From positions 1-6,111 of the IMG/VR virus record IMGVR_UViG_2778261182_000003: a DNA stretch of 6,111 bases. One strand, written 5' to 3'. Position numbers and translations under genes: made by a program. This document shows positions 1 to 6,111 of this stretch, in pieces. Numbering within the stretch: position 1 is the first letter of the stretch; each line of letters opens with the position of its first letter. Below the pieces are notes generated by a model, which was not told where the DNA came from, searched no databases, and was given only the letters and a program-made list of their open reading frames with translations. Source of the DNA: a virus. Taxonomy: Duplodnaviria > Heunggongvirae > Uroviricota > Caudoviricetes.

Positions 1-81
1 TCACTTTAAAAAGGGCGGACATCAGCCAGCAATGAAAACTGATGCCGCCAAAGGTACAAATCAACATGGAGTGTTGTAGCG

Positions 82-118
82 GGGTTGTCACTTAAGCGTA
101 TGGTCAACCTGACAACCC
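82..118. repeat. Perfect 9-bp inverted repeat GGGTTGTCA / TGACAACCC separated by 19 nt
   Basis: Read directly: 82-90 GGGTTGTCA and 110-118 TGACAACCC are exact reverse complements. The following sequence GGCGCATTTTCT has only a short T-run set 6 nt from the stem, so it is a poor intrinsic terminator; a protein-binding site or RNA hairpin is equally possible. Confidence 0.4.
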
Positions 119-298
119 GGCGCATTTTCTGGAGCAATGGAGGAAACCCCAGCCATACTTACCGCCGCGCCATTTCGCGGATTGCCACAACCGGAAGCGC
201 ACGGTCGAATTAAATTTAACGACACTACGAACTTCGCCGTGCACTTTCGTGTTGTGTGCCTGCTTTTAACCACGTCAGGCGAGGTGGTTCCTGTCATT

Positions 299-346
299 CC
301 CCAACAACAAGAAATTTGTATAATCCGGATACCCCAACAACGAGAA
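299..346 (+). promoter_or_regulatory. Candidate promoter for the downstream + strand gene: TATAAT -10 (319-324) bracketed by two 15-bp direct repeats CCCCAACAAC[A/G]AGAA
   Basis: TATAAT at 319-324 with TG immediately 5' of it (317-318). Direct repeats at 299-313 (CCCCAACAACAAGAA) and 332-346 (CCCCAACAACGAGAA) match 14/15. No good TTGACA-like -35 was found at 16-18 bp spacing, so promoter strength and identity are uncertain. Confidence 0.3.
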
Positions 347-381
347 GAGTGCTCAACGTGATAGCAGAACTGTCAGCGGCT

Positions 382-870
382 ATGGCTGCGATAAAGGAGA
401 CAGCTGGCCTCGCAAAGGTTATTAATGACGCAAAAACGGATGCAGAAGTTAAAGCCGCAACTATTGAACTTCAGAACAAACTAATCACGCTTCAGGCGGA
501 GTGCTTCTCTCTTGGCGATGCGATCCGTCTTCGTAACGAAGAGATAATGCTTCTCAAAGCAAAAATTGCAGAATTCGAAAACTTTCAGATTCAGACTGAA
601 GGTTATGTTCTTAACCAACTCGAATCGGGTGCTTTTGTATACTCGAAGGAGGAAACGGTGAATGGAGGCACTGTTACTATGCATCTTTGTCCAAAATGTT
701 TTGGACAAAAGACAGTATCTATACTCCAGCCATTCCCGGTTAGCGAAGATGCGCCTTTTCATGAAAGTAAGTGTCTCCACTGTGAAAACAAGTTTCTGAT
801 GAACAAAAATCCGGATTACATACCGCTGTCTTTTGATGAGATAGCGAGAACACTGGGCAGTAATCCGTAG
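382..870 (+). CDS. Hypothetical protein, ~162 aa: N-terminal coiled-coil-like region and C-terminal CxxC-x24-CxxC zinc-ribbon; no transmembrane segment
   Basis: Long ORF in the six-frame track (256..870); first in-frame ATG is at 382 (MAAIKETAG...). Alternative starts are GTG 358 or GTG 256; no convincing Shine-Dalgarno precedes 382, so the start is uncertain. Cys pairs CPKC and CLHC are 24 residues apart. I recognise no family. Confidence 0.55.
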   Translation: MAAIKETAGLAKVINDAKTDAEVKAATIELQNKLITLQAECFSLGDAIRLRNEEIMLLKAKIAEFENFQIQTEGYVLNQLESGAFVYSKEETVNGGTVTMHLCPKCFGQKTVSILQPFPVSEDAPFHESKCLHCENKFLMNKNPDYIPLSFDEIARTLGSNP

Positions 871-996
871 GTTATTGCTGTTGTGGATATCCAGATTGTT
901 AAAGAACATGCCGGATTCTTATCCGTGTCCGGCGCACGACCAAACGCTGTCACGTGTGGTCTCCATTCTCAACCAGTAACCTCAATGGAGGATAAA

Positions 997-1206
997 ATGC
1001 CAAACAAGCCAATACATCCGCTTATTGAAAAACAGATTGAATGCCTAGTTAATCAACTCAGGCAATCAGGGTTATTAAAAACTCATTCAGAGCTAGGGCT
1101 CACAGAATCGGCATTCGACGATAAATTAAATAATGCGCTTTATAATGGCATCATTGATTACAATCGTGGCGCTGGTCGTCGTGGCCCTGCTGGTACAGCT
1201 TTGTAA
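997..1206 (+). CDS. Hypothetical small protein, 69 aa
   Basis: ATG at 997 preceded by GGAGG (987-991) with 5-nt spacing; in frame with track ORF 883..1206 (which begins at a GTG). Stop TAA at 1204-1206. Alternative start ATG 985 lacks an SD. I recognise no family. Confidence 0.5.
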   Translation: MPNKPIHPLIEKQIECLVNQLRQSGLLKTHSELGLTESAFDDKLNNALYNGIIDYNRGAGRRGPAGTAL

Positions 1207-1857
1207 TTACCAGTTAATCCATAGCGGATAGTGTTCAGCATAAATATAACTATACACATCCAGGTTGTATTTGCGGTCTGTCCTTAGCAGGTCGCAAATA
1301 CAGGCCGCAGCTTCCAGGGCAGCAGCTTTGTTGCTGAATAACCATGTAGCAACATTCCAGCGATTATCTGTATCCCACTCTTTTGCGAGAGTTGACACCA
1401 CGAAGGAGCCGTTGGTATTGCCATCAAATACTTCCGTTTCCAGATTTTTACGTAATGCCTGGTGAATTCTTGCCAGATATTCAGTCGGAATTTCGCCACG
1501 AATTCGGATAAGGTTGTCATAAACAAACATGTTCCCCGCATATGGCGATTTTTCTTTCCTGCATTTTAAGCCAGCATCACGGGTAAACTGGTCAATTTCT
1601 TCTTCGGTTTGTTTCGTATTGATGTTTTGCGTTATCGTTTCTGCAATGGGCTTTGCTTTATTTTCTACACAATGATTGTTTGTGAACGAATCTGAATACA
1701 GTCCGGTAAAAGAATTGCGGACATGATTTGATAAATTTCTGATGAACACCTTATCTACTAATATCATTGGGTTCCGCGCCAGTTGCGAGCGAATCACATC
1801 AGCGGCCATTTCCTGTATTGGTAGTGGTAAATCTTTAAATTCCATCGTCAGCCTCAT
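1207..1857 (-). CDS. Hypothetical protein, 216 aa, soluble, unknown function; second gene of the leftward early operon
   Basis: Uninterrupted 651-nt ORF on - strand. Start ATG (1857-1855) overlaps the TGA stop of the upstream small gene by 1 nt (TGATG), indicating translational coupling. Alternative start 4 codons downstream (ATG 1845-1843) has a GAGG SD. No Walker motif or hydrophobic segment; no family recognised. Confidence 0.7.
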   Translation of the reverse strand: MRLTMEFKDLPLPIQEMAADVIRSQLARNPMILVDKVFIRNLSNHVRNSFTGLYSDSFTNNHCVENKAKPIAETITQNINTKQTEEEIDQFTRDAGLKCRKEKSPYAGNMFVYDNLIRIRGEIPTEYLARIHQALRKNLETEVFDGNTNGSFVVSTLAKEWDTDNRWNVATWLFSNKAAALEAAACICDLLRTDRKYNLDVYSYIYAEHYPLWINW

Positions 1858-2009
1858 CAGTCAGTGTTTCTTGCTAACCAGCGACGTGCGCCAGATTCGG
1901 TTTTAAACGTTTTGCTTTTGGTATACGTCATCGCGGTGAACGTACCGTCCTGGTTGGGGAACACGCCGCACACCAGAGATTCACTGTTGCCAAGATCGAT
2001 AGTATCCAT
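1857..2009 (-). CDS. Hypothetical small protein, 50 aa (MDTIDLGNSE...ARRWLARNTD); first gene of the leftward operon
   Basis: In-frame ATG at 2009-2007 preceded by GAGG at 5-nt spacing and AAGGGG further upstream. The track ORF extends upstream to GTG 2063, which I consider less likely. Stop TGA (1859-1857) overlaps the next gene's ATG. Confidence 0.5.
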   Translation of the reverse strand: MDTIDLGNSESLVCGVFPNQDGTFTAMTYTKSKTFKTESGARRWLARNTD

Positions 2010-2085
2010 GTTGACCTCATTTCCCCTTAACGCTGGGGTAGCGGAACTGTTTGCTGAGAACACCGTGCGGTGTCTTGATGAGTAG

Positions 2086-2139
2086 AATTTAGAATAACCT
2101 AAGAATTGCGGTCAAGCTTTTTATGTAGAAAAACCTAAG
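2086..2139 (-). promoter_or_regulatory. OL/PL-like region: leftward promoter (-35 TTGACC at plus 2115-2110; -10 CTAAAT/TAAATT around 2092-2086) overlapped by two TTAG-N6-CTAA operator-like palindromes
   Basis: Palindrome TTTAG-aataac-CTAAG at 2088-2103; imperfect GTAG-aaaaac-CTAAG at 2124-2139. The same TTAG-N6-CTAA motif recurs in the repressor/Cro intergenic region. The promoter hexamers were read by eye and TSS is not determined. Confidence 0.4.
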
Positions 2140-2150
2140 TTTTTTGATGT

Positions 2151-2179
2151 AAAAAACACAAGTATTTGAAAGTTTGTGC
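2151..2179 (-). terminator. Weak terminator-like hairpin downstream of the repressor gene (- strand RNA: GCACAA-loop-UUGUGU followed by U6)
   Basis: On the - strand, plus 2174-2179 pairs with plus 2157-2162 (6 bp including one G-U, AU-rich), followed by a U6 run (plus 2151-2156 = AAAAAA). Low stem stability, so speculative. Confidence 0.25.
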
Positions 2180-2212
2180 TTTTTATTACAGGGAGTGGCG
2201 AAAAAAGGGGGG

Positions 2213-2620
2213 TTATTTATTTGCGCTTCTTTTGCGAGCTTTGAGTAGTTCTTCAAAAAGTTTGTTGAAATTCTCAACTCGAGCACGCATCTCTGACAAC
2301 AGAGCCTTTTGCTCTGACTCAGGCAGTGCGTCGAACAGTTGAAGCAACTCTTTTTGATCTTCTGTCAGATTGACTGGCTGATTATCTGGGATCGGTTCGC
2401 CTGGTTGCTTATCTTCATCTCCAAAAAGAAGCCAAGTCGGCGAGCACTGAAGCGCCTGGCTCAGTGCGAATAATCTCTTCCCCGCTGGCTGTGTTTCATC
2501 TCTTTCCCATTGAGAAATTGTTACGTGAGCCACTTTGACCAGCTTACCTAATGCGGCCTGAGACAGTTTTAATTTTTTACGCCTGTATAAGAGGCGAGCA
2601 CCGAAGGTTTCGTTTTTCAT
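2213..2620 (-). CDS. dicA: Prophage repressor, DicA family (XRE-type HTH), 135 aa
   Basis: 135-aa ORF whose N-terminal HTH (LSQAALGKLVKVAHVTISQWERDET) and C-terminal segments (LFALSQALQCSPTWLLFGDEDKQP; ALPESEQ...EMRARVENFNKLFEELLKARKR) closely match E. coli DicA as I recall it. Divergent arrangement with a Cro-like gene. The symbol denotes family resemblance, not proven orthology. Confidence 0.9.
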   Translation of the reverse strand: MKNETFGARLLYRRKKLKLSQAALGKLVKVAHVTISQWERDETQPAGKRLFALSQALQCSPTWLLFGDEDKQPGEPIPDNQPVNLTEDQKELLQLFDALPESEQKALLSEMRARVENFNKLFEELLKARKRSANK

Positions 2621-2690
2621 ATTAGGTAATTCTAATTTTTCTTGACTTAGGTTTCTCTACGATCTAGTTTCCTTAGGAAAATCTAAGGAG
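2621..2690. promoter_or_regulatory. OR-like divergent promoter/operator region with three TTAG-N6-CTAA sites; rightward promoter TTGACT(2642-2647)-N17-TAGTTT(2665-2670); leftward -10 TAGAAT (plus 2634-2629) ending 8 nt before the repressor ATG
   Basis: Sites: ATTAG-gtaatt-CTAAT 2621-2636 (perfect), TTAG-gtttct-CTAc 2647-2660 (imperfect), CTTAG-gaaaat-CTAAG 2672-2687 (perfect); centres about 25-26 bp apart. AAGGAG RBS at 2685-2690 lies 6 nt before ATG 2697. No SD precedes the repressor ATG. Confidence 0.5.
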
Positions 2691-2696
2691 TTCGAT

Positions 2697-2924
2697 ATGT
2701 TGAAAATTGATGCTATAGCGTTTTTTGGCAGCAAAACAAAGCTTGCCAATGCCGCAGGAGTTAGGCTGGCAAGCGTTGCTGCATGGGGGAAACTGGTTCC
2801 TGAAGGTCGCGCGATGCGCCTGCAAGAGGCATCCGGCGGGGAACTTCAGTACGACCCCAAAGTTTATGACGAATATCGTAAGGCAAAGCGGGCGGGGCGG
2901 TTGAACAATGAAAATCACCCCTGA
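2697..2924 (+). CDS. dicC: Cro-like small regulator of the DicC/YdaS family, 75 aa
   Basis: Divergent from the DicA-like repressor; AAGGAG RBS; sequence (GRAMRLQEASGGELQYDPKVYDEYRK) matches DicC/YdaS-type proteins as I recall them. The symbol denotes family resemblance. Confidence 0.8.
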   Translation: MLKIDAIAFFGSKTKLANAAGVRLASVAAWGKLVPEGRAMRLQEASGGELQYDPKVYDEYRKAKRAGRLNNENHP

Positions 2925-3459
2925 ACAGGTTTGTGAGGCTCTGGATGCCTGGGTATGCCGACCAGGAATGACACAGGAGCAGGCGACGATATTAATCACG
3001 GAAGCATTCTGGGCTCTGAAAGAACGCCCGAACATTGATGTTCAACGCGTCACGTTTGATGATGGCGCGGTTGATCAACGGGCACTGGGCGTTAACCGGG
3101 TGAAGATATTCGAACGCTGGAAAGCTATCGACACCAGGGATAAGCGTGAAAAATTCACGGCGCTGATTCCGGCAATTATGGAGGCTATCCGGATCAGTGA
3201 TTTCAGGTTGTATCGTGAAATTACTGACGGAAAAAGCATTACGTACATGATCGCCGGGTTAAACAAAGAATATGGCGATGTGGTGGAGTCCGGGCTGCTT
3301 TTTGCGGATCCAGCTGTTGTGGAACGTGAGACTGACGAGCTTATAGAAAAAGCTATTGCTTTCAAGCATGCGTATCGTCAGCAATACAAACATTACTTTG
3401 CAGATAAACAAATATCTGTCTGGGGTTCGTATGAGTATCGATGCACTACGATGGGCTAA
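2908..3459 (+). CDS. YdaT-family protein (CII-like regulator analogue of Rac-type prophages), 183 aa
   Basis: ATG 2908 overlaps the upstream gene by 17 nt. Segment IFERWKAIDTRDKREKFTALIPAIMEAI resembles the conserved core of Rac YdaT as recalled; position immediately after the Cro analogue fits. Confidence 0.7.
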   Translation: MKITPEQVCEALDAWVCRPGMTQEQATILITEAFWALKERPNIDVQRVTFDDGAVDQRALGVNRVKIFERWKAIDTRDKREKFTALIPAIMEAIRISDFRLYREITDGKSITYMIAGLNKEYGDVVESGLLFADPAVVERETDELIEKAIAFKHAYRQQYKHYFADKQISVWGSYEYRCTTMG

Positions 3460-4471
3460 AAAGGTGAAAACCGGCAGTTCATCCAGTAAGTCAGTATTGA
3501 CCTGGCTTGCTGATATGTGCGGTGCCGATTTGTGTGCATACCCGTCTGTATCTGCACTGGCAGAAGTAACGGAACTGAACAAAAAGACTGTGCAGGACAG
3601 CTTACGACACCTGATGGAGATTGGGTTAATTGTTGATACCGGTGAGAGAAAAGGCCGAACAAAGCAAATTGTGGTGTACCGACTTATCGGTGTAGAAGAA
3701 AGCGTTGCCGAGCCTGAATACACCCAAAAACGGGAGTCTTTAAAGGTGAGTAAAATTGGTGCTGTTAATAAAAACAGTACCGAAAATGGTTATGTTTCAG
3801 CACAAAACAGACCCAAAAACGAAACTCTTAGTTGCATGGAAAATAACCAAAGACACCCAAATTTTCCATCAAAGACACCCAAAAACGGATCACGGAACCC
3901 AAAGGAACCCAAAGATCTAAACCCCACACATAACGCACGCGAGAGTGCTCCGACCAGTGAGCAGGAAGTTTTGTCGTTACAGGCAGCACCCCCTGTATTC
4001 CTGGATGGCCTGAGCGAACCCATCGGAAAATTTCCGATGACCGATAGCTGGTATCCGTCACGGGATTTTCGACGACGTGCTGCGTTGTGGGGGATGGCTT
4101 TGCCGGAGACAGAATTCACACCTGCTGAACTTGCCGCCTTCCGGGACTACTGGGCAGCGGAGGGGAAAGTGTTTACGCAGATTCAGTGGGAGCAGAAATT
4201 CGCCCGTCACGTAAATCACGTCAGGGCGCAGGTTAAACCAGTCAGCAAGGGGGTAAACCATGCAGCAGCACCAGGTGACACCGCATCACGGGCAGTTCAG
4301 GAGATTCGGGCAGCACGTGAGCAGTGGGAACGTGAAAACGGATTTATCAGCGACGGAAACGGCCTGGAAGCTGTGGGAACTCATGGGGGAGGTTTATTCG
4401 AACCGCTGGATCCAGAAGAACGGGGCCGCACCTTCGAAGCTCTGGATTGCACAGATTGGTGCGATGACTGA
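3431..4471 (+). CDS. Replication initiation protein (lambda O analogue): N-terminal winged-helix replication-protein domain and DnaT-like C-terminal region; 346 aa as read
   Basis: Start ATG 3431 (MSIDALRWAKK...) gives the typical N-terminus of phage HTH replication proteins (...YPSVSALAEVTELNKKTVQDSLRHLMEIGLI...). C-terminal FPMTDSWYPSRDF...YWAAEG resembles DnaT-type domains. The track ORF begins at an upstream TTG (3356) inside the preceding gene. The last ~72 codons overlap the next gene in another frame (see findings). Confidence 0.75.
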   Translation: MSIDALRWAKKVKTGSSSSKSVLTWLADMCGADLCAYPSVSALAEVTELNKKTVQDSLRHLMEIGLIVDTGERKGRTKQIVVYRLIGVEESVAEPEYTQKRESLKVSKIGAVNKNSTENGYVSAQNRPKNETLSCMENNQRHPNFPSKTPKNGSRNPKEPKDLNPTHNARESAPTSEQEVLSLQAAPPVFLDGLSEPIGKFPMTDSWYPSRDFRRRAALWGMALPETEFTPAELAAFRDYWAAEGKVFTQIQWEQKFARHVNHVRAQVKPVSKGVNHAAAPGDTASRAVQEIRAAREQWERENGFISDGNGLEAVGTHGGGLFEPLDPEERGRTFEALDCTDWCDD

Positions 4472-4925
4472 GCAGCAAATCCGACAGGTCTGCCGCCAGT
4501 GCATGGACCGCTGCCGGGCGGGTGAAACATGGCCTCCGGACCTGGCTGAGTTTGTGGCGCTGATTTCTGAAAGCGGAGCCAATCCATTCGGTCTGACGGT
4601 GAATGCCGTGATGGAGGAGTACCGCCGCTGGCGCAACGAGTCCTGGCGATACGACGGGAGCGATAAATACCCGTGGTCTCAGCCTGTGCTGTATCACATT
4701 TGCCTCGAGATGCGTTCAAAGGGGATTGAGCGGCAGATGACCGAAGGGGAGTTAAAACGGCTTGCAGAACGGCAGCTGACGAAATGGGCAAAGCATGTTG
4801 GTGACGGCTTCAGCGTTCCGCCCGTACGGCGGCAACTGGCAGCACCAAAACGCCCGTCGGGGCCAACACCAATTGAGTTGCTGAAACAGGAATATGAACG
4901 CCGGAAAGCGGCTGGTTTTGTTTGA
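4260..4925 (+). CDS. Replication protein P-like (putative DnaB helicase loader), 221 aa
   Basis: ATG 4260 preceded by AAGGGGG (4247-4253) at 6-nt spacing. Protein aligns by eye with lambda P as recalled (SNRW...LWIAQIGAMTEQQ vs ...RRQWVLAFRENGITTMEQV; YPWSQPVLY vs YPWKSNAHYW; similar overall length). In-frame alternative starts at 4383 and 4464 would truncate the conserved N-terminal region. Confidence 0.65.
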   Translation: MQQHQVTPHHGQFRRFGQHVSSGNVKTDLSATETAWKLWELMGEVYSNRWIQKNGAAPSKLWIAQIGAMTEQQIRQVCRQCMDRCRAGETWPPDLAEFVALISESGANPFGLTVNAVMEEYRRWRNESWRYDGSDKYPWSQPVLYHICLEMRSKGIERQMTEGELKRLAERQLTKWAKHVGDGFSVPPVRRQLAAPKRPSGPTPIELLKQEYERRKAAGFV

Positions 4926-4958
4926 GTTGATAAGTAATTTTACCGGGAGGAAATTTTA

Positions 4959-5720
4959 ATGGAGACTGTTTTTGACGCACTGAAAGCAATGGGAAAAGCC
5001 ACGTCGGTAGAACTCGCTGCGCGACTTGATATCAGTCGTGAAGAAGTGCTGAACGAGCTGTGGGAACTGAAAAAGGCTGGCTTCGTTGATAAAAGCGTAT
5101 ACACCTGGCGTGTGGCTGATAACAACGTTCAGCAGGAACAGCCAGCGCTGGCAGAACTGCCGGAAGAAACTACCACGGCAACAGTCGCTAAAATTTCGGA
5201 GAGCGATTTAACTGCGACGATTGAACAACGTGGACCACAAACGGCGGATGAACTGGCTACGCTGTTCGGTACCACATCCCGCAAAGTGGCTTCAACGCTG
5301 GCAATGGCAATCAGCAAAGGTCGTCTGATTCGTGTAAACCAGAACGGTAAATTTCGTTACTGCATACCGGGTGATAATTTACCAGCAGAGCCGAAAGTTG
5401 AATCGGTAGCGGAAACCGATGGTAAAGCCTTTCCTCAGCCAGCAGGTGTTGCGTTACCAGTACAGGAAGCTGCAACACAGGAAGATATTAAAACAGAAAC
5501 TGTGGCTGATATTGTGCAATCGTTGCCATCGTTTACTGAAACGCGAGCGGATGACCTGGTTTTACCATCGCTGCATATGGCAAACCGCGAATTGCGTCGG
5601 GCGAAAAGTCATGTCCAGAAGTGGGAGCGAGTCTGCGCCGCGCTGCGGGAGCTGAACAAGCACCGGGATATTGTTCGACAGATTACTGATTTTTCCCGCC
5701 GTGTTGCATCGGAAAAGTGA
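4959..5720 (+). CDS. Conserved hypothetical prophage protein, 253 aa, with two winged-helix-like segments and an acidic linker
   Basis: ATG 4959 with GGGAGG (4945-4950) upstream. HTH-like segments at the N-terminus ([30 protein letters not shown]) and mid-protein ([30 protein letters not shown]). Family assignment not verified. Confidence 0.7.
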
Positions 5721-5735
5721 TTGCCGGAGGCGCTT

Positions 5736-6111
5736 ATGGCAAAAGTATTTACACAAGAAGAGCGGGAAAAAATTAAGGGGCAGATTGTTGAACTTGTACG
5801 TCTGAGCGGTCGCGAGACGTTACGGCAACTGGAAGCGAAAACAGGTGCGACAAGATATCTGATGAGTGTTCTCGCCAGAGAGCTGGTTGCCAGTGGCGAT
5901 GTATACAATTCTGGCTACGGGTTATTTCCGTCTGAACAGGCTCGTAAGGACTGGCAAAACGCCCGCATAAAACTATCGAGGGCAAAGGCGAAGAAACCGG
6001 TTATGGTTGATCCGGACCTTATCTGGTCATTACCAGACGGAGAAATACGCCGCTACGACAGGCGTCAGAACATGATTTGCCGTGAGTGCCGGGAAAGCGA
6101 AGTTATGCAGC
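5736..6111 (+). CDS. Hypothetical protein, 5' portion only (at least 125 aa, continues beyond the window); N-terminal winged-helix-like segment
   Basis: ATG 5736 preceded by GGAGG (5726-5730) at 5-nt spacing; frame open to the window end (not in the ORF track because no stop is reached). Begins MAKVFTQEEREKIKGQIVELVRLSGRETLRQLEAKTGATRYLMSVLARELVASG. Confidence 0.6.
   Translation, partial: MAKVFTQEEREKIKGQIVELVRLSGRETLRQLEAKTGATRYLMSVLARELVASGDVYNSGYGLFPSEQARKDWQNARIKLSRAKAKKPVMVDPDLIWSLPDGEIRRYDRRQNMICRECRESEVMQ

Follow-up and report, generated by a model that had tools for sequence, protein, structure and literature searches.

A conserved two-frame overlap joins the replication initiator and helicase loader genes of a prophage

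The window analysed here is a stretch of 6,111 nt, positions 1 to 6,111 of the Caudoviricetes record IMGVR_UViG_2778261182_000003. Its replication genes follow the gene order and operon layout of phage lambda, in which Cro-like and cII/YdaT-like genes precede an initiator and a helicase loader. The initiator and loader genes overlap on the same strand in different frames, and the features that define the junction are as follows.

3431 to 4471, plus strand: O-like replication initiator, 346 aa; an open reading frame (ORF), with the same 1041-nt CDS annotated in RefSeq and GenBank relatives
4031 to 4231, plus strand: DnaT-domain segment of the initiator, single-coding, used as the O-only control (O-frame pN/pS 0.30; AF2 pLDDT 80-89)
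4247 to 4253, plus strand: AAGGGGG, the loader Shine-Dalgarno (SD) sequence, which includes the G5 run, lies 6 nt 5' of ATG 4260 and is read Lys-Gly-(Val) in the O frame
4254 to 4256, plus strand: TAA in the P frame, the stop that the O frame would reach with one G fewer; the P frame is open from 4257
4260 to 4925, plus strand: P-like helicase loader, long model of 221 aa, from the sole start codon kept family-wide (PF06992; PHROG 109; AF2 fold)
4260 to 4471, plus strand: dual-coding overlap of 212 nt with the P frame at O frame +1; both frames are open wherever an initiator lies upstream (recoding tests, stop-bearing controls)

The original prediction placed the G5 run at 4249-4253 in an O-like frame that stays open to the TGA at 4469-4471, and a P-like ORF from ATG 4260 that overlaps this frame by 212 nt (4260-4471). 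Both sets of coordinates match the sequence, as does the predicted length of 72 residues for the O-like tail (4253-4468). Starting at ATG 3431, the O-like frame reads GTC AGC AAG GGG GTA AAC CAT across the run. It also holds that with one G removed this frame would read AAG GGG TAA and stop 3 nt before ATG 4260. This stop-then-start geometry is coincidental. The TAA at 4254-4256 is the stop that closes the P frame 5' of ATG 4260, and it is not kept in relatives, which have GTG AAC, GGG GAA or GGT AAC there.

The initiator comprises a putative N-terminal HTH region, a repeat-rich linker, a DnaT DNA-binding domain and the 72-residue C-terminal tail. Residues 201-267 match Pfam PF17948 (DnaT) with 61.6 bits (cut-off 25), the gene lying directly upstream of the loader, and RefSeq names the protein "DnaT-like ssDNA-binding domain-containing protein". 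The HTH_36 score is 20.9 bits, under the cut-off of 25. Like lambda O, the initiator gene contains iteron-like repeats (3717-3913), with three copies each of ACACCCAAAAACG and CAAAGACACCCAAA. Like E. coli DnaT, the protein has the C-terminal DNA-binding region, which residues 194-282 match (PF17948; NF002770 positions 82-170). Unlike E. coli DnaT, it scores only 94.5 bits against NF002770, for which the equivalog cut-off is 201 bits, and it has a different N-terminus and the additional 72-residue tail. By these profile matches it is a phage initiator with a borrowed DnaT domain and not a DnaT orthologue. The tail alone has no Pfam match. A homologue search with its 72 aa returned only eight short fragments, and full-length carriers surfaced in an exhaustive representative search. 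In the AF2 model of the initiator C-terminus, a tail helix is predicted at model residues 87-102. The tail would presumably be stable in the cell, and its frame encodes the peptides GVNHAAAPGDTASR, AVQEIR, ENGFISDGNGLEAVGTHGGGLFEPLDPEER and TFEALDCTDWCDD.

The loader matches Pfam PF06992, the family of lambda P, with 59.1 bits (cut-off 26), but this alignment starts only at residue 60. PHROG 109 ("P-like helicase loader") matches residues 19-220 with an E-value of 1e-61. Residues 1-68 alone had no match in Pfam, and NCBIfam provided no loader model. A profile of the loader (A2) matches the lambda P chains 8v9t and 8v9s (E-value 8e-6), and its AF2 model (mean pLDDT 76) aligns over 219 columns with the solved structure of lambda P bound to DnaB (9oa1_Z; E-value 4e-6) at a TM score of 0.50, a moderate similarity for a model that is itself a prediction. 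Binding and loading of the host DnaB is a putative function of the loader. In the model, the helices between residues 25 and 67 have a pLDDT of about 87 and residues 1-25 of about 32; residues 1-24 are unconserved and predicted to be disordered. The family alignment contains the invariant residues M42, W50, K53, N54, G55, P58 and W62, all of which lie upstream of Met69, the start of the RefSeq model in E. coli. P homology had been expected to begin well upstream of 4471, and both these residues and the PHROG 109 match from residue 19 bear this out. Loader peptides encoded upstream of Met69 are FGQHVSSGNVK, TDLSATETAWK, LWELMGEVYSNR and NGAAPSK.

Start signals at 4260 are conserved. An ATG equivalent to 4260 was found in every locus, Vibrio phages included, and the O-frame codon spanning it is always NAT (CAT, AAT, TAT or GAT), never NAC. 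The duplex of AAGGGGG with the anti-SD sequence has an energy of -11.8 kcal/mol. At the equivalent ATG, all enterobacterial relatives have an SD of -7 to -12 kcal/mol (GGAGGT, GAGGAG, AGGAG, AAGGAG), and the Vibrio phages have a weaker one (-3.5 to -5.2). The site at Met42 reaches about -4 kcal/mol here and up to -9.8 in a few relatives, and that at Met69 -3.1. From these signals we infer that the loader is translated from ATG 4260. The universal ATG and conserved SD favor the gene model of the original prediction, which had this start and AAGGGGG as its ribosome-binding site, contrary to most database annotation.

The openness of both frames exceeds what chance would give. Every related locus with an upstream initiator has two open frames for 191-239 nt, except for one lineage (L020) in which the tail stops after 113 nt. 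Such loci include those of E. albertii, Salmonella, Citrobacter, Klebsiella, Pluralibacter, Enterobacter and three Vibrio phages, and the P frame is always O +1. Among 82 distinct segments (104 loci), the O frame is closed only in an orphan P gene without an upstream initiator. When segments were recoded synonymously, given the P protein, the probability of an open O frame was 0.0015-0.16 per lineage (median about 3%), and the frame is open in 14 of 14 diverged lineages. In the reverse test the probability of an open P frame was 0.06-0.52, again with 14 of 14 lineages open. Because the lineages are related, these per-lineage probabilities are not simply multiplied. For the second half of the overlap alone, the probability of an open O frame was 0.03-0.39 per lineage. 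For the first half, a test of P-frame openness is powerless, since the O protein by itself leaves that frame open with a probability of 0.3-0.99, and it is therefore not counted as evidence. Taken by itself, this first-half test would be compatible with a loader start somewhat downstream of 4260, as would the lack of conservation in residues 1-24. Two natural controls carry stops in the frame equivalent to the initiator: five in the orphan P gene and four in the P gene of phiV10. An IMG/VR scan with the loader alignment yielded 80 loci, all 95-97% identical, which are informative only on the absence of frame-breaking variants.

Constraint is divided between the two frames, and the following segments within the overlap are referred to below.

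4280 to 4342, plus strand: first half, dominated by the O frame; tail segment TASRAVQEIRAAREQWERENG, a predicted helix, with the disordered leader residues 7-28 in the P frame
4332 to 4463, plus strand: second half, dominated by the P frame; loader helices 25-46, 48-54 and 60-67 (AWKLWELMGEVYSNRWIQKNGAAPSKLWIAQIG), with a low-constraint, mostly disordered acidic tail in the O frame
4400 to 4423, plus strand: acidic O-frame motif E-P-L-D-P-E-E-R over P-frame S-N-R-W-I-Q-K-N; the glutamates need G at P wobble positions

The pN/pS of the O frame rises from 0.30 in the O-only region to 0.53 at 4260-4361 and 1.97 at 4362-4468, and that of the P frame falls from 0.80 at 4260-4361 to 0.18 at 4362-4468 and 0.20 in the P-only region. 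Purifying selection is thus detected in each frame, for O in the first half (0.53) and for P in the second (0.18). The P-frame phase of the O-only control has a pN/pS of 1.50, compared with 0.80 in the first half, and the second-half O-frame value of 1.97 is close to that of an unselected control frame (2.24). In the DnaT-domain segment, codon position 3 is the most variable (0.447 versus 0.19 and 0.20), and within the overlap the most variable phase shifts midway from O3 to P3.

As regards wobble bases, O-frame signals in the second half hold only site by site. Glutamates E129 and E130 do not vary in the tail alignment. Of 15 lineages, 14 have G as the last base of P codon 47, 11 of them through the rare codon TCG; 13 have G as the last base of P codon 52, even though five amino acids are encoded there; and 14 encode K53 with AAG. 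In the orphan control, codons 47, 52 and 53 are AGC, ACA and AAA. The wobble constraint imposed by the O-frame E..EE is absent from this control, and also past the early O stop in L020. Across all conserved loader residues, global wobble conservation does not differ significantly inside and outside the overlap (0.518 versus 0.567, p = 0.33). We dropped a D..D[WR] motif in the distal tail as independent evidence of selection, since its conservation is dictated by the conserved codons of the loader residues W-I-A-Q-I-G.

The tail and the loader behave as a module. The tail forms the extreme C-terminus of initiators with HTH+DnaT, DUF1376+DnaT, unknown+DnaT, Phage_rep_O and other N-termini. The tail is consistently present in homologous initiators from independent genomes, with substitution patterns of dual coding, an outcome named beforehand as decisive. 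Together with the five initiator architectures that carry it, this upholds one of the two alternatives in the original prediction, a true initiator tail of about 72 residues encoded where the P-like N-terminus is read in its other frame. Modules of phiV10 and TL-2011b resemble the one in the window in that a PF06992 loader comes straight after a DnaT-domain initiator, and in TL-2011b the DNA of the DnaT domain is 81% identical to positions 3919-4226. They differ in that their genes overlap canonically or briefly (4 nt in phiV10, 29 nt in TL-2011b), their initiators end in a short, different acidic-aromatic tail, and their loaders have another type of N-terminus (27-31% identity). A mosaic breakpoint lies just 5' of the overlap, with TL-2011b being 81% identical at the nucleotide level up to 4226 and then continuing into a different short tail and a different P type. 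Since the similarity of such modules to the window ends just before the overlap, the tail and loader are exchanged together.

Taken together, these observations make it likely, in our view, that the initiator and loader genes overlap genuinely on one strand, with divided constraint, that the arrangement is ancient, and that the tail would be a docking peptide for the loader. The maintenance of both frames, the conserved start and SD, the invariably C-terminal position of the tail and the breakpoint just upstream are direct observations. On this explanation, the initiator would be translated through the G5 run to the TGA at 4469-4471, and translation of the loader, a lambda P homologue, would begin within the initiator gene, at ATG 4260 in frame +1, with AAGGGGG as its SD. 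Over the first ~100 nt, the initiator frame would encode the conserved helix, and the loader frame a disordered, freely evolving leader. Over the next ~110 nt, the loader frame would encode the three helices with which its N-terminal domain begins, and the initiator frame a low-constraint acidic tail, probably selected to be stop-free and to be acidic at a few positions (EP.D.EE). The tail may act as a loader-specific docking peptide by analogy with lambda, in which the C-terminus of O is thought to bind P and the N-terminus of P to bind O, domain assignments that are themselves termed "suggested" or "assumed" (PMC6022878). As the docking tail and the loader N-terminus share the same DNA, recombination would be unable to split a matched pair.

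The original prediction had weighed a genuine tail against a frameshift mutation, slippage site or sequencing error in the homopolymer. The tail stood, and these other readings did not. If an error in the G5 run, or a frameshift, had fused a short initiator ending in ...VSKG to the out-of-frame loader, the tail would be an artefact or a pseudogene product. Homopolymers are prone to error, one G fewer gives AAG GGG TAA 3 nt before the ATG, and the related DnaT-type initiators of phiV10 and TL-2011b lack this tail. Against this, the segment is present with the same frame in 1,253 of 5,426 complete E. coli genomes and the frame recurs in the 82 related distinct segments. Run-length variants with G4 or G6 had no match in IMG/VR, compared with at least 119 matches of the correct length. 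Differences in the run among relatives are substitutions and not indels (AAAGGGG, G7, GAGGGGG, GGAGGT, GGAGGA), and they leave the frame intact. The tail is kept as far as the Vibrio phages and over five initiator architectures, its first half has an O-frame pN/pS of 0.53, and RefSeq sets no pseudogene flag on these genes. On such comparative data we regard this reading as already refuted. Programmed slippage at G5 (or A AAG GGG) would instead yield a truncated initiator by a +1 slip into the TAA at 4254-4256, a tail-less isoform, or, at a slip further 3', a fusion of initiator and loader. A +1 shift anywhere in the overlap would meet no stop, as both frames are open, and would give a fusion product of about 480-500 aa. 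The initiator matches positions 163-347 of the PHROG 15931 profile (482 positions in all) and the loader positions 288-482, which implies a fused ORF in at least one deposited phage. However, fused ORFs among the homologues are rare assembly singletons (P0077), no slippery motif is conserved (other genera have GGAGGT, GGAGGA or GAGGGGG), and neither is the out-of-frame stop. The conserved ATG and SD account fully for the G-rich motif, and we consider slippage very improbable.

Two further readings concern where the loader starts and what maintains the distal tail, and both involve the following codons.

4383 to 4385, plus strand: Met42 codon of the P frame, the NCBI start of 180-181-aa models in Salmonella, Klebsiella and Citrobacter; weak SD in most loci
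4464 to 4471, plus strand: ATGACTGA, in which the P-frame Met69 codon overlaps the O-frame stop TGA (4469-4471); RefSeq start in E. coli, 153-aa model

Should the databases be right, the loader would begin at Met69 (4464; an 8-nt overlap at ATGACTGA) or at Met42 (4383; 89 nt), and the P frame upstream would be untranslated and open through the composition of the tail. RefSeq and GenBank list loaders of 153 aa in E. coli and of 180-181 aa in Salmonella, Klebsiella and Citrobacter. Given the O protein, chance suffices for an open P frame at 4260-4361 (0.3-0.99), the first 24 loader residues are unconserved and disordered, and ATGACTGA is a classic termination-reinitiation layout, kept from E. 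coli to Enterobacter. Neither methionine is conserved throughout, however: codon 69 encodes Leu (TTG, CTG, CTA, TTA or CTT) in more distant loci (Salmonella salamae, Symbiopectobacterium, Vibrio phages), and Vibrio phage D67 has CTG at codon 42. The invariant W50, K53, N54, G55, P58 and W62 precede Met69, and the conserved W36 and W39 precede Met42. A start at Met69 would also drop three confidently predicted helices that align with the N-terminal domain of lambda P. Only the ATG equivalent to 4260 is universal, with its strong, conserved SD and NAT O codon, and even from Met42 an 89-nt two-frame overlap persists. We therefore find a late start quite improbable, and the 153-aa (Met69) and about 180-aa (Met42) database models are probably truncated at the N-terminus. 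Alternatively, the overlap may be real without the distal tail being selected as a peptide, if ribosome traffic tunes loader initiation or terminates and re-initiates at Met69, so that only openness and the stop position are constrained. Consistent with this, the second-half tail has a pN/pS of 1.97 versus 2.24 in the control and is yet kept open (0.03-0.39 per lineage), its stop lies within the motif ATGA[CG]TGA that is conserved from E. coli to Enterobacter, and the loader SD and ATG lie inside translated initiator sequence. Conversely, the O stop shifts position in distant lineages without Met69 (L019, L021, Vibrio phages), the acidic positions of EP.D.EE are held by specific wobble bases, a constraint that loosens in the orphan control, and selection on the first-half helix clearly acts at the peptide level. 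This reading is compatible with the docking explanation for the first half of the overlap, and for the distal tail we judge it unlikely.

Going beyond the genuine overlap with a docking tail, the arrangement might be an evolved linkage device, in which lambdoid phages swap origin-recognition heads freely by mosaic recombination and the docking pair, encoded on one shared stretch, stays inseparable, and ATGACTGA may also give a short Met69 isoform in the E. coli to Enterobacter clade. We put this forward tentatively and find it rather doubtful. The proposed isoform, arising by termination-reinitiation, would lack the initiator-docking domain.

In lambda, O and P share only 4 nt (ATGA), unlike the 212-nt dual-coding overlap described here. 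The HTH/DnaT architecture of the initiator also differs from the Phage_rep_O of lambda, yet one lineage (L106) combines a Phage_rep_O initiator with the same tail and a 209-nt overlap. Same-strand overprinted pairs include A/B and D/E of phiX174 and Rz/Rz1 of lambda, and a familiar pattern in overlapping viral genes is that constraint is split between the frames, with the less constrained product of each segment being disordered. Like those pairs, the overlap would yield two proteins from one stretch in different frames. Rather than placing a small gene within a larger one, it joins the ends of adjacent genes whose products are expected to touch through those ends. Our literature search for a description of this initiator/loader overlap found nothing relevant. 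As overlapping genes are well known in phages, this is not a new kind of mechanism, and the overlap adds to a known phenomenon one instance that had not been described before.

When prokaryotic genomes are annotated, a long overlap on one strand is usually put down to a misplaced start codon. This locus seems to show the reverse, with pipelines cutting the loader from 221 aa to 153 or about 180 aa to avoid an overlap that is real by the comparative evidence. Over a thousand E. coli genomes and many other Enterobacteriaceae have such shortened loaders. As a result, three N-terminal helices are missing from the catalogued protein, in the part that corresponds to the presumed initiator contact of lambda P. 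The overlap is also a clean natural case of divided constraint with built-in controls, namely the loader gene that has no initiator upstream and the sister modules that lack such an overlap. Tail and loader move together behind at least five initiator heads, and the locus offers a concrete, testable example of how interacting protein ends may be kept together in highly mosaic phage genomes.

We determined how the initiator and loader genes share their junction by checking the reading frames on the window sequence. The coordinates originally predicted for the G5 run, both ORFs and their overlap proved exact:

3431 (probable start ATG) to TGA 4469-4471, + strand: initiator ORF, O frame
ATG 4260 to 4925, + strand: loader ORF, 221 aa, +1 frame (P frame)
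4254-4256, + strand: TAA in the P frame, a stop upstream of ATG 4260

The initiator frame reads ...GTC AGC AAG GGG GTA AAC CAT... through the G5 run (4249-4253) and stays open to its TGA, and the two ORFs have 212 nt in common. Because of the P-frame TAA, deletion of one G would end the initiator at 4254-4256, 3 nt before the loader ATG, as had been pointed out. Both proteins are ordinary members of known families. In Pfam, the initiator matches the DnaT DNA-binding domain PF17948 (residues 201-267, 61.6 bits) and has a weak N-terminal HTH, while the loader matches PF06992 (59.1 bits), the lambda P family of helicase loaders. Since the initiator scored 94.5 bits against the NCBIfam DnaT equivalog profile, below its 201-bit cut-off, profile evidence identifies it as a DnaT-domain lambdoid initiator and not a DnaT orthologue.

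The window is a lambdoid early-right region, where a CI/DicA-like repressor gene (- strand) is followed by Cro-like, YdaT-family, initiator, loader and DUF1627 genes. The YdaT-family gene (2908-3459) overlaps the initiator start (3431) by 29 nt and the Cro-like gene (2697-2924) overlaps the YdaT-family start (2908) by 17 nt, both on the same strand and with identical geometry in the RefSeq annotation of the closest relative. Two ORFs upstream of the immunity region, 256-870 (+) and 1207-1857 (-), of 204 and 216 aa, had no Pfam match at E <= 0.001. The linker of the initiator gene contains iteron-like direct repeats (3717-3913), in which ACACCCAAAAACG occurs three times (3722, 3811 and 3877; the observed count was reached in 0/200 shuffles), CAAAGACACCCAAA three times and GGAACCCAAA twice in tandem. 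These repeats mark a candidate origin of replication; the lambda origin likewise lies within the initiator gene.

The original prediction left open whether the G5 run reflects a frameshift mutation, a slippage site or a homopolymer sequencing error. A 501-nt query spanning the junction had matches in 1,253 of the 5,426 complete E. coli genomes, most of them 95-99% identical, and RefSeq gives both genes as intact. Exact-pattern scans of IMG/VR found zero G4 and zero G6 junctions, while the correct length occurred at least 119 times. Among relatives, the run is altered by substitution with the frame kept: it is AAAGGGG in PPompW/Stx2a phages, G7 in Rac-SA53, and GAGGGGG, GGAGGT or GGAGGA in Salmonella, Citrobacter, Klebsiella, Pluralibacter and Enterobacter. 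Considering that the run changes by substitution and that the out-of-frame TAA is not conserved, there is no conserved slippery motif. Together, the genome counts, the missing G4 and G6 forms and the substitution-only variation rule out a sequencing error, a recent indel and a slippage site. The G-rich element is instead accounted for by its position 5-8 nt upstream of the conserved ATG and its pairing with the anti-Shine-Dalgarno (anti-SD), with energies of -7 to -12 kcal/mol across all enterobacterial loci.

The remaining reading, an initiator carrying a tail of about 72 residues translated from the other frame, is supported by aligned homologues. From E. albertii to Enterobacter, all nine genome loci compared (46-95% identity across the DnaT domain plus tail) have the tail and end at the same stop. 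In more distant loci it follows initiator heads of quite different kinds. The S. salamae head is distinct and Pfam-less (239-nt overlap), that of another Salmonella is of HTH/DnaT type (224 nt), and DUF1376 heads occur in Symbiopectobacterium (113 nt) and, in the overlap arrangement, in E. coli. A further head is Phage_rep_O (lambda O type), lacks a DnaT domain and comes with a 209-nt overlap and the SD AAGGAG. Three Vibrio phage lineages with 'O-like' initiators have overlaps of 212, 200 and 191 nt, with the loader frame always initiator +1. An exhaustive search of 1.84 billion representatives found the 72-aa tail nowhere but at the very C-terminal end of proteins of 317-360 aa. Its common pattern is [ST]-A-S-R-A-V-Q-x-I-R-x-A-R-E-x-W-E-R, then a Gly-rich stretch, then H-G-G-x-x-x-E-P-x-D-x-E-E. 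An AlphaFold2 model from a shallow alignment (12 sequences) predicted that the DnaT domain is followed by a disordered linker, a single helix over SRAVQEIRAAREQWER and a remainder of low confidence. As judged from this conservation, the tail is real and a C-terminal module.

We compared the openness of both frames with chance by recoding the loader protein with random synonymous codons at local codon usage in 14 diverged lineages. The O frame was open in 0.15-16% of trials (median about 3%) and is actually open in 14/14 lineages, although the per-lineage probabilities are not independent because the lineages are related; the most distant (E. coli, Klebsiella, S. salamae and Vibrio phages) are saturated at synonymous sites. 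Restricted to the second half, recoding left the O frame open in 3-39% of trials per lineage. Conversely, given the initiator protein, the loader frame was open in 6-52% of recodings for the whole overlap and in 30-99% for the first half alone, so the latter sub-test has no power. Natural controls have stops in the initiator-equivalent frame, as expected: five in an orphan loader gene with no initiator upstream and four in the phiV10 loader gene. The overlap is kept in all 82 distinct segments (104 loci) except the orphan loader. This 189-aa homologue (46% identity; 2501-3070 in locus L017, 380-949 in L018) has PTS/molybdopterin genes on one side and a LysR regulator on the other, has neither an initiator nor any other phage gene nearby, and is possibly a prophage remnant or a domesticated loader.

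Constraint is divided along the overlap in 14 enterobacterial sequences.

Most variable codon phase (mean pairwise difference) and pN/pS, by region
DnaT domain (O only): O3, 0.447-0.449 vs about 0.19-0.22; O-frame pN/pS 0.30
Overlap first half, 4260-4361: O3, 0.327; pN/pS O 0.53, P 0.80
Overlap second half, 4362-4468: P3, 0.325 vs 0.113, 0.090; pN/pS O 1.97, P 0.18
Loader only: P3, 0.456 vs 0.151, 0.100; P-frame pN/pS 0.20

Non-coding-frame controls were 1.50 (P-frame phase in the O-only region) and 2.24 (O-frame phase in the P-only region). The initiator frame therefore dominates the first half, where the loader frame is weakly constrained (0.80 vs 1.50), and the loader frame dominates the second, where the initiator frame is almost as unselected as its control (1.97 vs 2.24). 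A global wobble-conservation test at conserved loader residues was not significant. At single sites, G ends loader codon 47 in 14/15 lineages (TCG, a rare Ser codon, in 11) and codon 52 in 13/15, even though codon 52 specifies five different amino acids, and Lys53 is AAG in 14/15; jointly they yield the invariant O-frame glutamates of EP.D.EE. The orphan loader has AGC, ACA and AAA there. In L020, one of the exceptions, whose tail ends after 113 nt, the site comes after the lineage's own early initiator stop. The fixation of these wobble bases is explained by the initiator frame only. The distal-tail D..D[W/R] was dropped as evidence for selection because it follows automatically from the conserved loader W-I-A-Q-I-G. 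Selection on the distal half of the tail is weak and site-specific. The substitution pattern expected of dual coding is present in the O-frame constraint of the first half, the P-frame constraint of the second and the EP.D.EE wobble bases.

All GenBank and RefSeq records keep the initiator with its full tail and differ in the loader start. E. coli records start it at Met69 (ATG 4464; 153 aa; 8-nt ATGACTGA overlap) or even at 4503, NCBI models in Salmonella, Klebsiella and Citrobacter at Met42 (180-181 aa), and other gene callers at the ATG 4260 equivalent (212-223 aa). Conservation places the start of the loader upstream of Met69, as predicted from homology beginning well before 4471. Among 24 family members (46-78% identity), the invariant residues are M42, W50, K53, N54, G55, P58 and W62; conservation extends to W36 and W39, and many members have Leu at position 69. 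The alignment to PHROG 109 ('P-like helicase loader') starts at residue 19. Codon 69 is TTG, CTG, CTA, TTA or CTT in S. salamae, Symbiopectobacterium, a second Salmonella lineage and Vibrio phages, and codon 42 is CTG in Vibrio phage D67. The 4260-equivalent ATG is the only universal start codon among the compared loci. In the O frame, the codon across it reads CAT, AAT, TAT or GAT (for His, Asn, Tyr and Asp); the synonymous NAC form is never used and a G always follows, as selection on the ATG itself predicts. An AlphaFold2 model from the shallow 24-sequence alignment has a disordered leader (residues 1-25, pLDDT about 32) and helices at 25-46, 48-54 and 60-67 (pLDDT about 87), and resembles full-length lambda P in its DnaB complex (9oa1_Z; E 4e-6, TM 0.50, 219 columns). 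By this model, a Met69 start would cost the N-terminal domain three helices. In phiV10, the homologous N-terminal region is encoded with no overlap at all. Support for the predicted start at ATG 4260 behind AAGGGGG comes from the conserved ATG and SD; the openness test does not provide it. ATGA[CG]TGA is conserved in the E. coli to Enterobacter clade; termination-reinitiation there at Met69, and hence a short loader isoform, is speculation.

At least five initiator heads are followed by the tail together with this loader subfamily. Escherichia phage TL-2011b (L107, 1185-1597) is 81% identical in nucleotides to window 3919-4226 and not beyond, which places a sharp mosaic junction just upstream of the overlap. 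Past it, TL-2011b has an unrelated 30-residue acidic-aromatic tail and a lambda/phiV10-type loader overlapping by 29 nt, so tail and loader are exchanged as one unit. PHROG 15931 (482 profile positions, unknown function) matches initiator residues 161-345 at profile 163-347 (E 3e-107) and loader residues 11-221 at 288-482 (E 3e-102). The matches (window 3911-4922) overlap in profile coordinates, which implies a fused initiator-loader ORF in at least one deposited phage; any +1 indel within the overlap gives a stop-free fusion. A DUF1376-loader fusion occurs as a singleton (P0077) among the loader homologues. In L002 (PP818812.1, 'Actinobacillus phage vB_Apl-pPE4'; recorded host Actinobacillus pleuropneumoniae), the module is 93% identical in nucleotides to the window; such closeness is surprising in a phage of Pasteurellaceae, and the record may stem from a contaminating E. 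coli prophage or name the wrong host.

The above comparisons show, at the level of sequence, one 212-nt stretch read as two genes, with the conserved SD and ATG of the loader inside translated initiator sequence. Each protein has its ordered part, as modelled, where the other is disordered or under low constraint. Same-strand gene overlaps in which constraint is divided are a familiar feature of phages. Our literature search found no description of this conserved 190-240-nt overlap at the initiator/loader junction. The other new element is that a widely propagated annotation probably truncates the loader; the proteins themselves are of known families. In lambda, the C-terminal region of O is thought to bind P, and the N-terminal region of P to bind O (PMC6022878). 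By analogy, the tail helix would be the loader-specific docking peptide of the initiator. Encoding this peptide on the same DNA as the loader N-terminus would keep the matched pair together in modular recombination.
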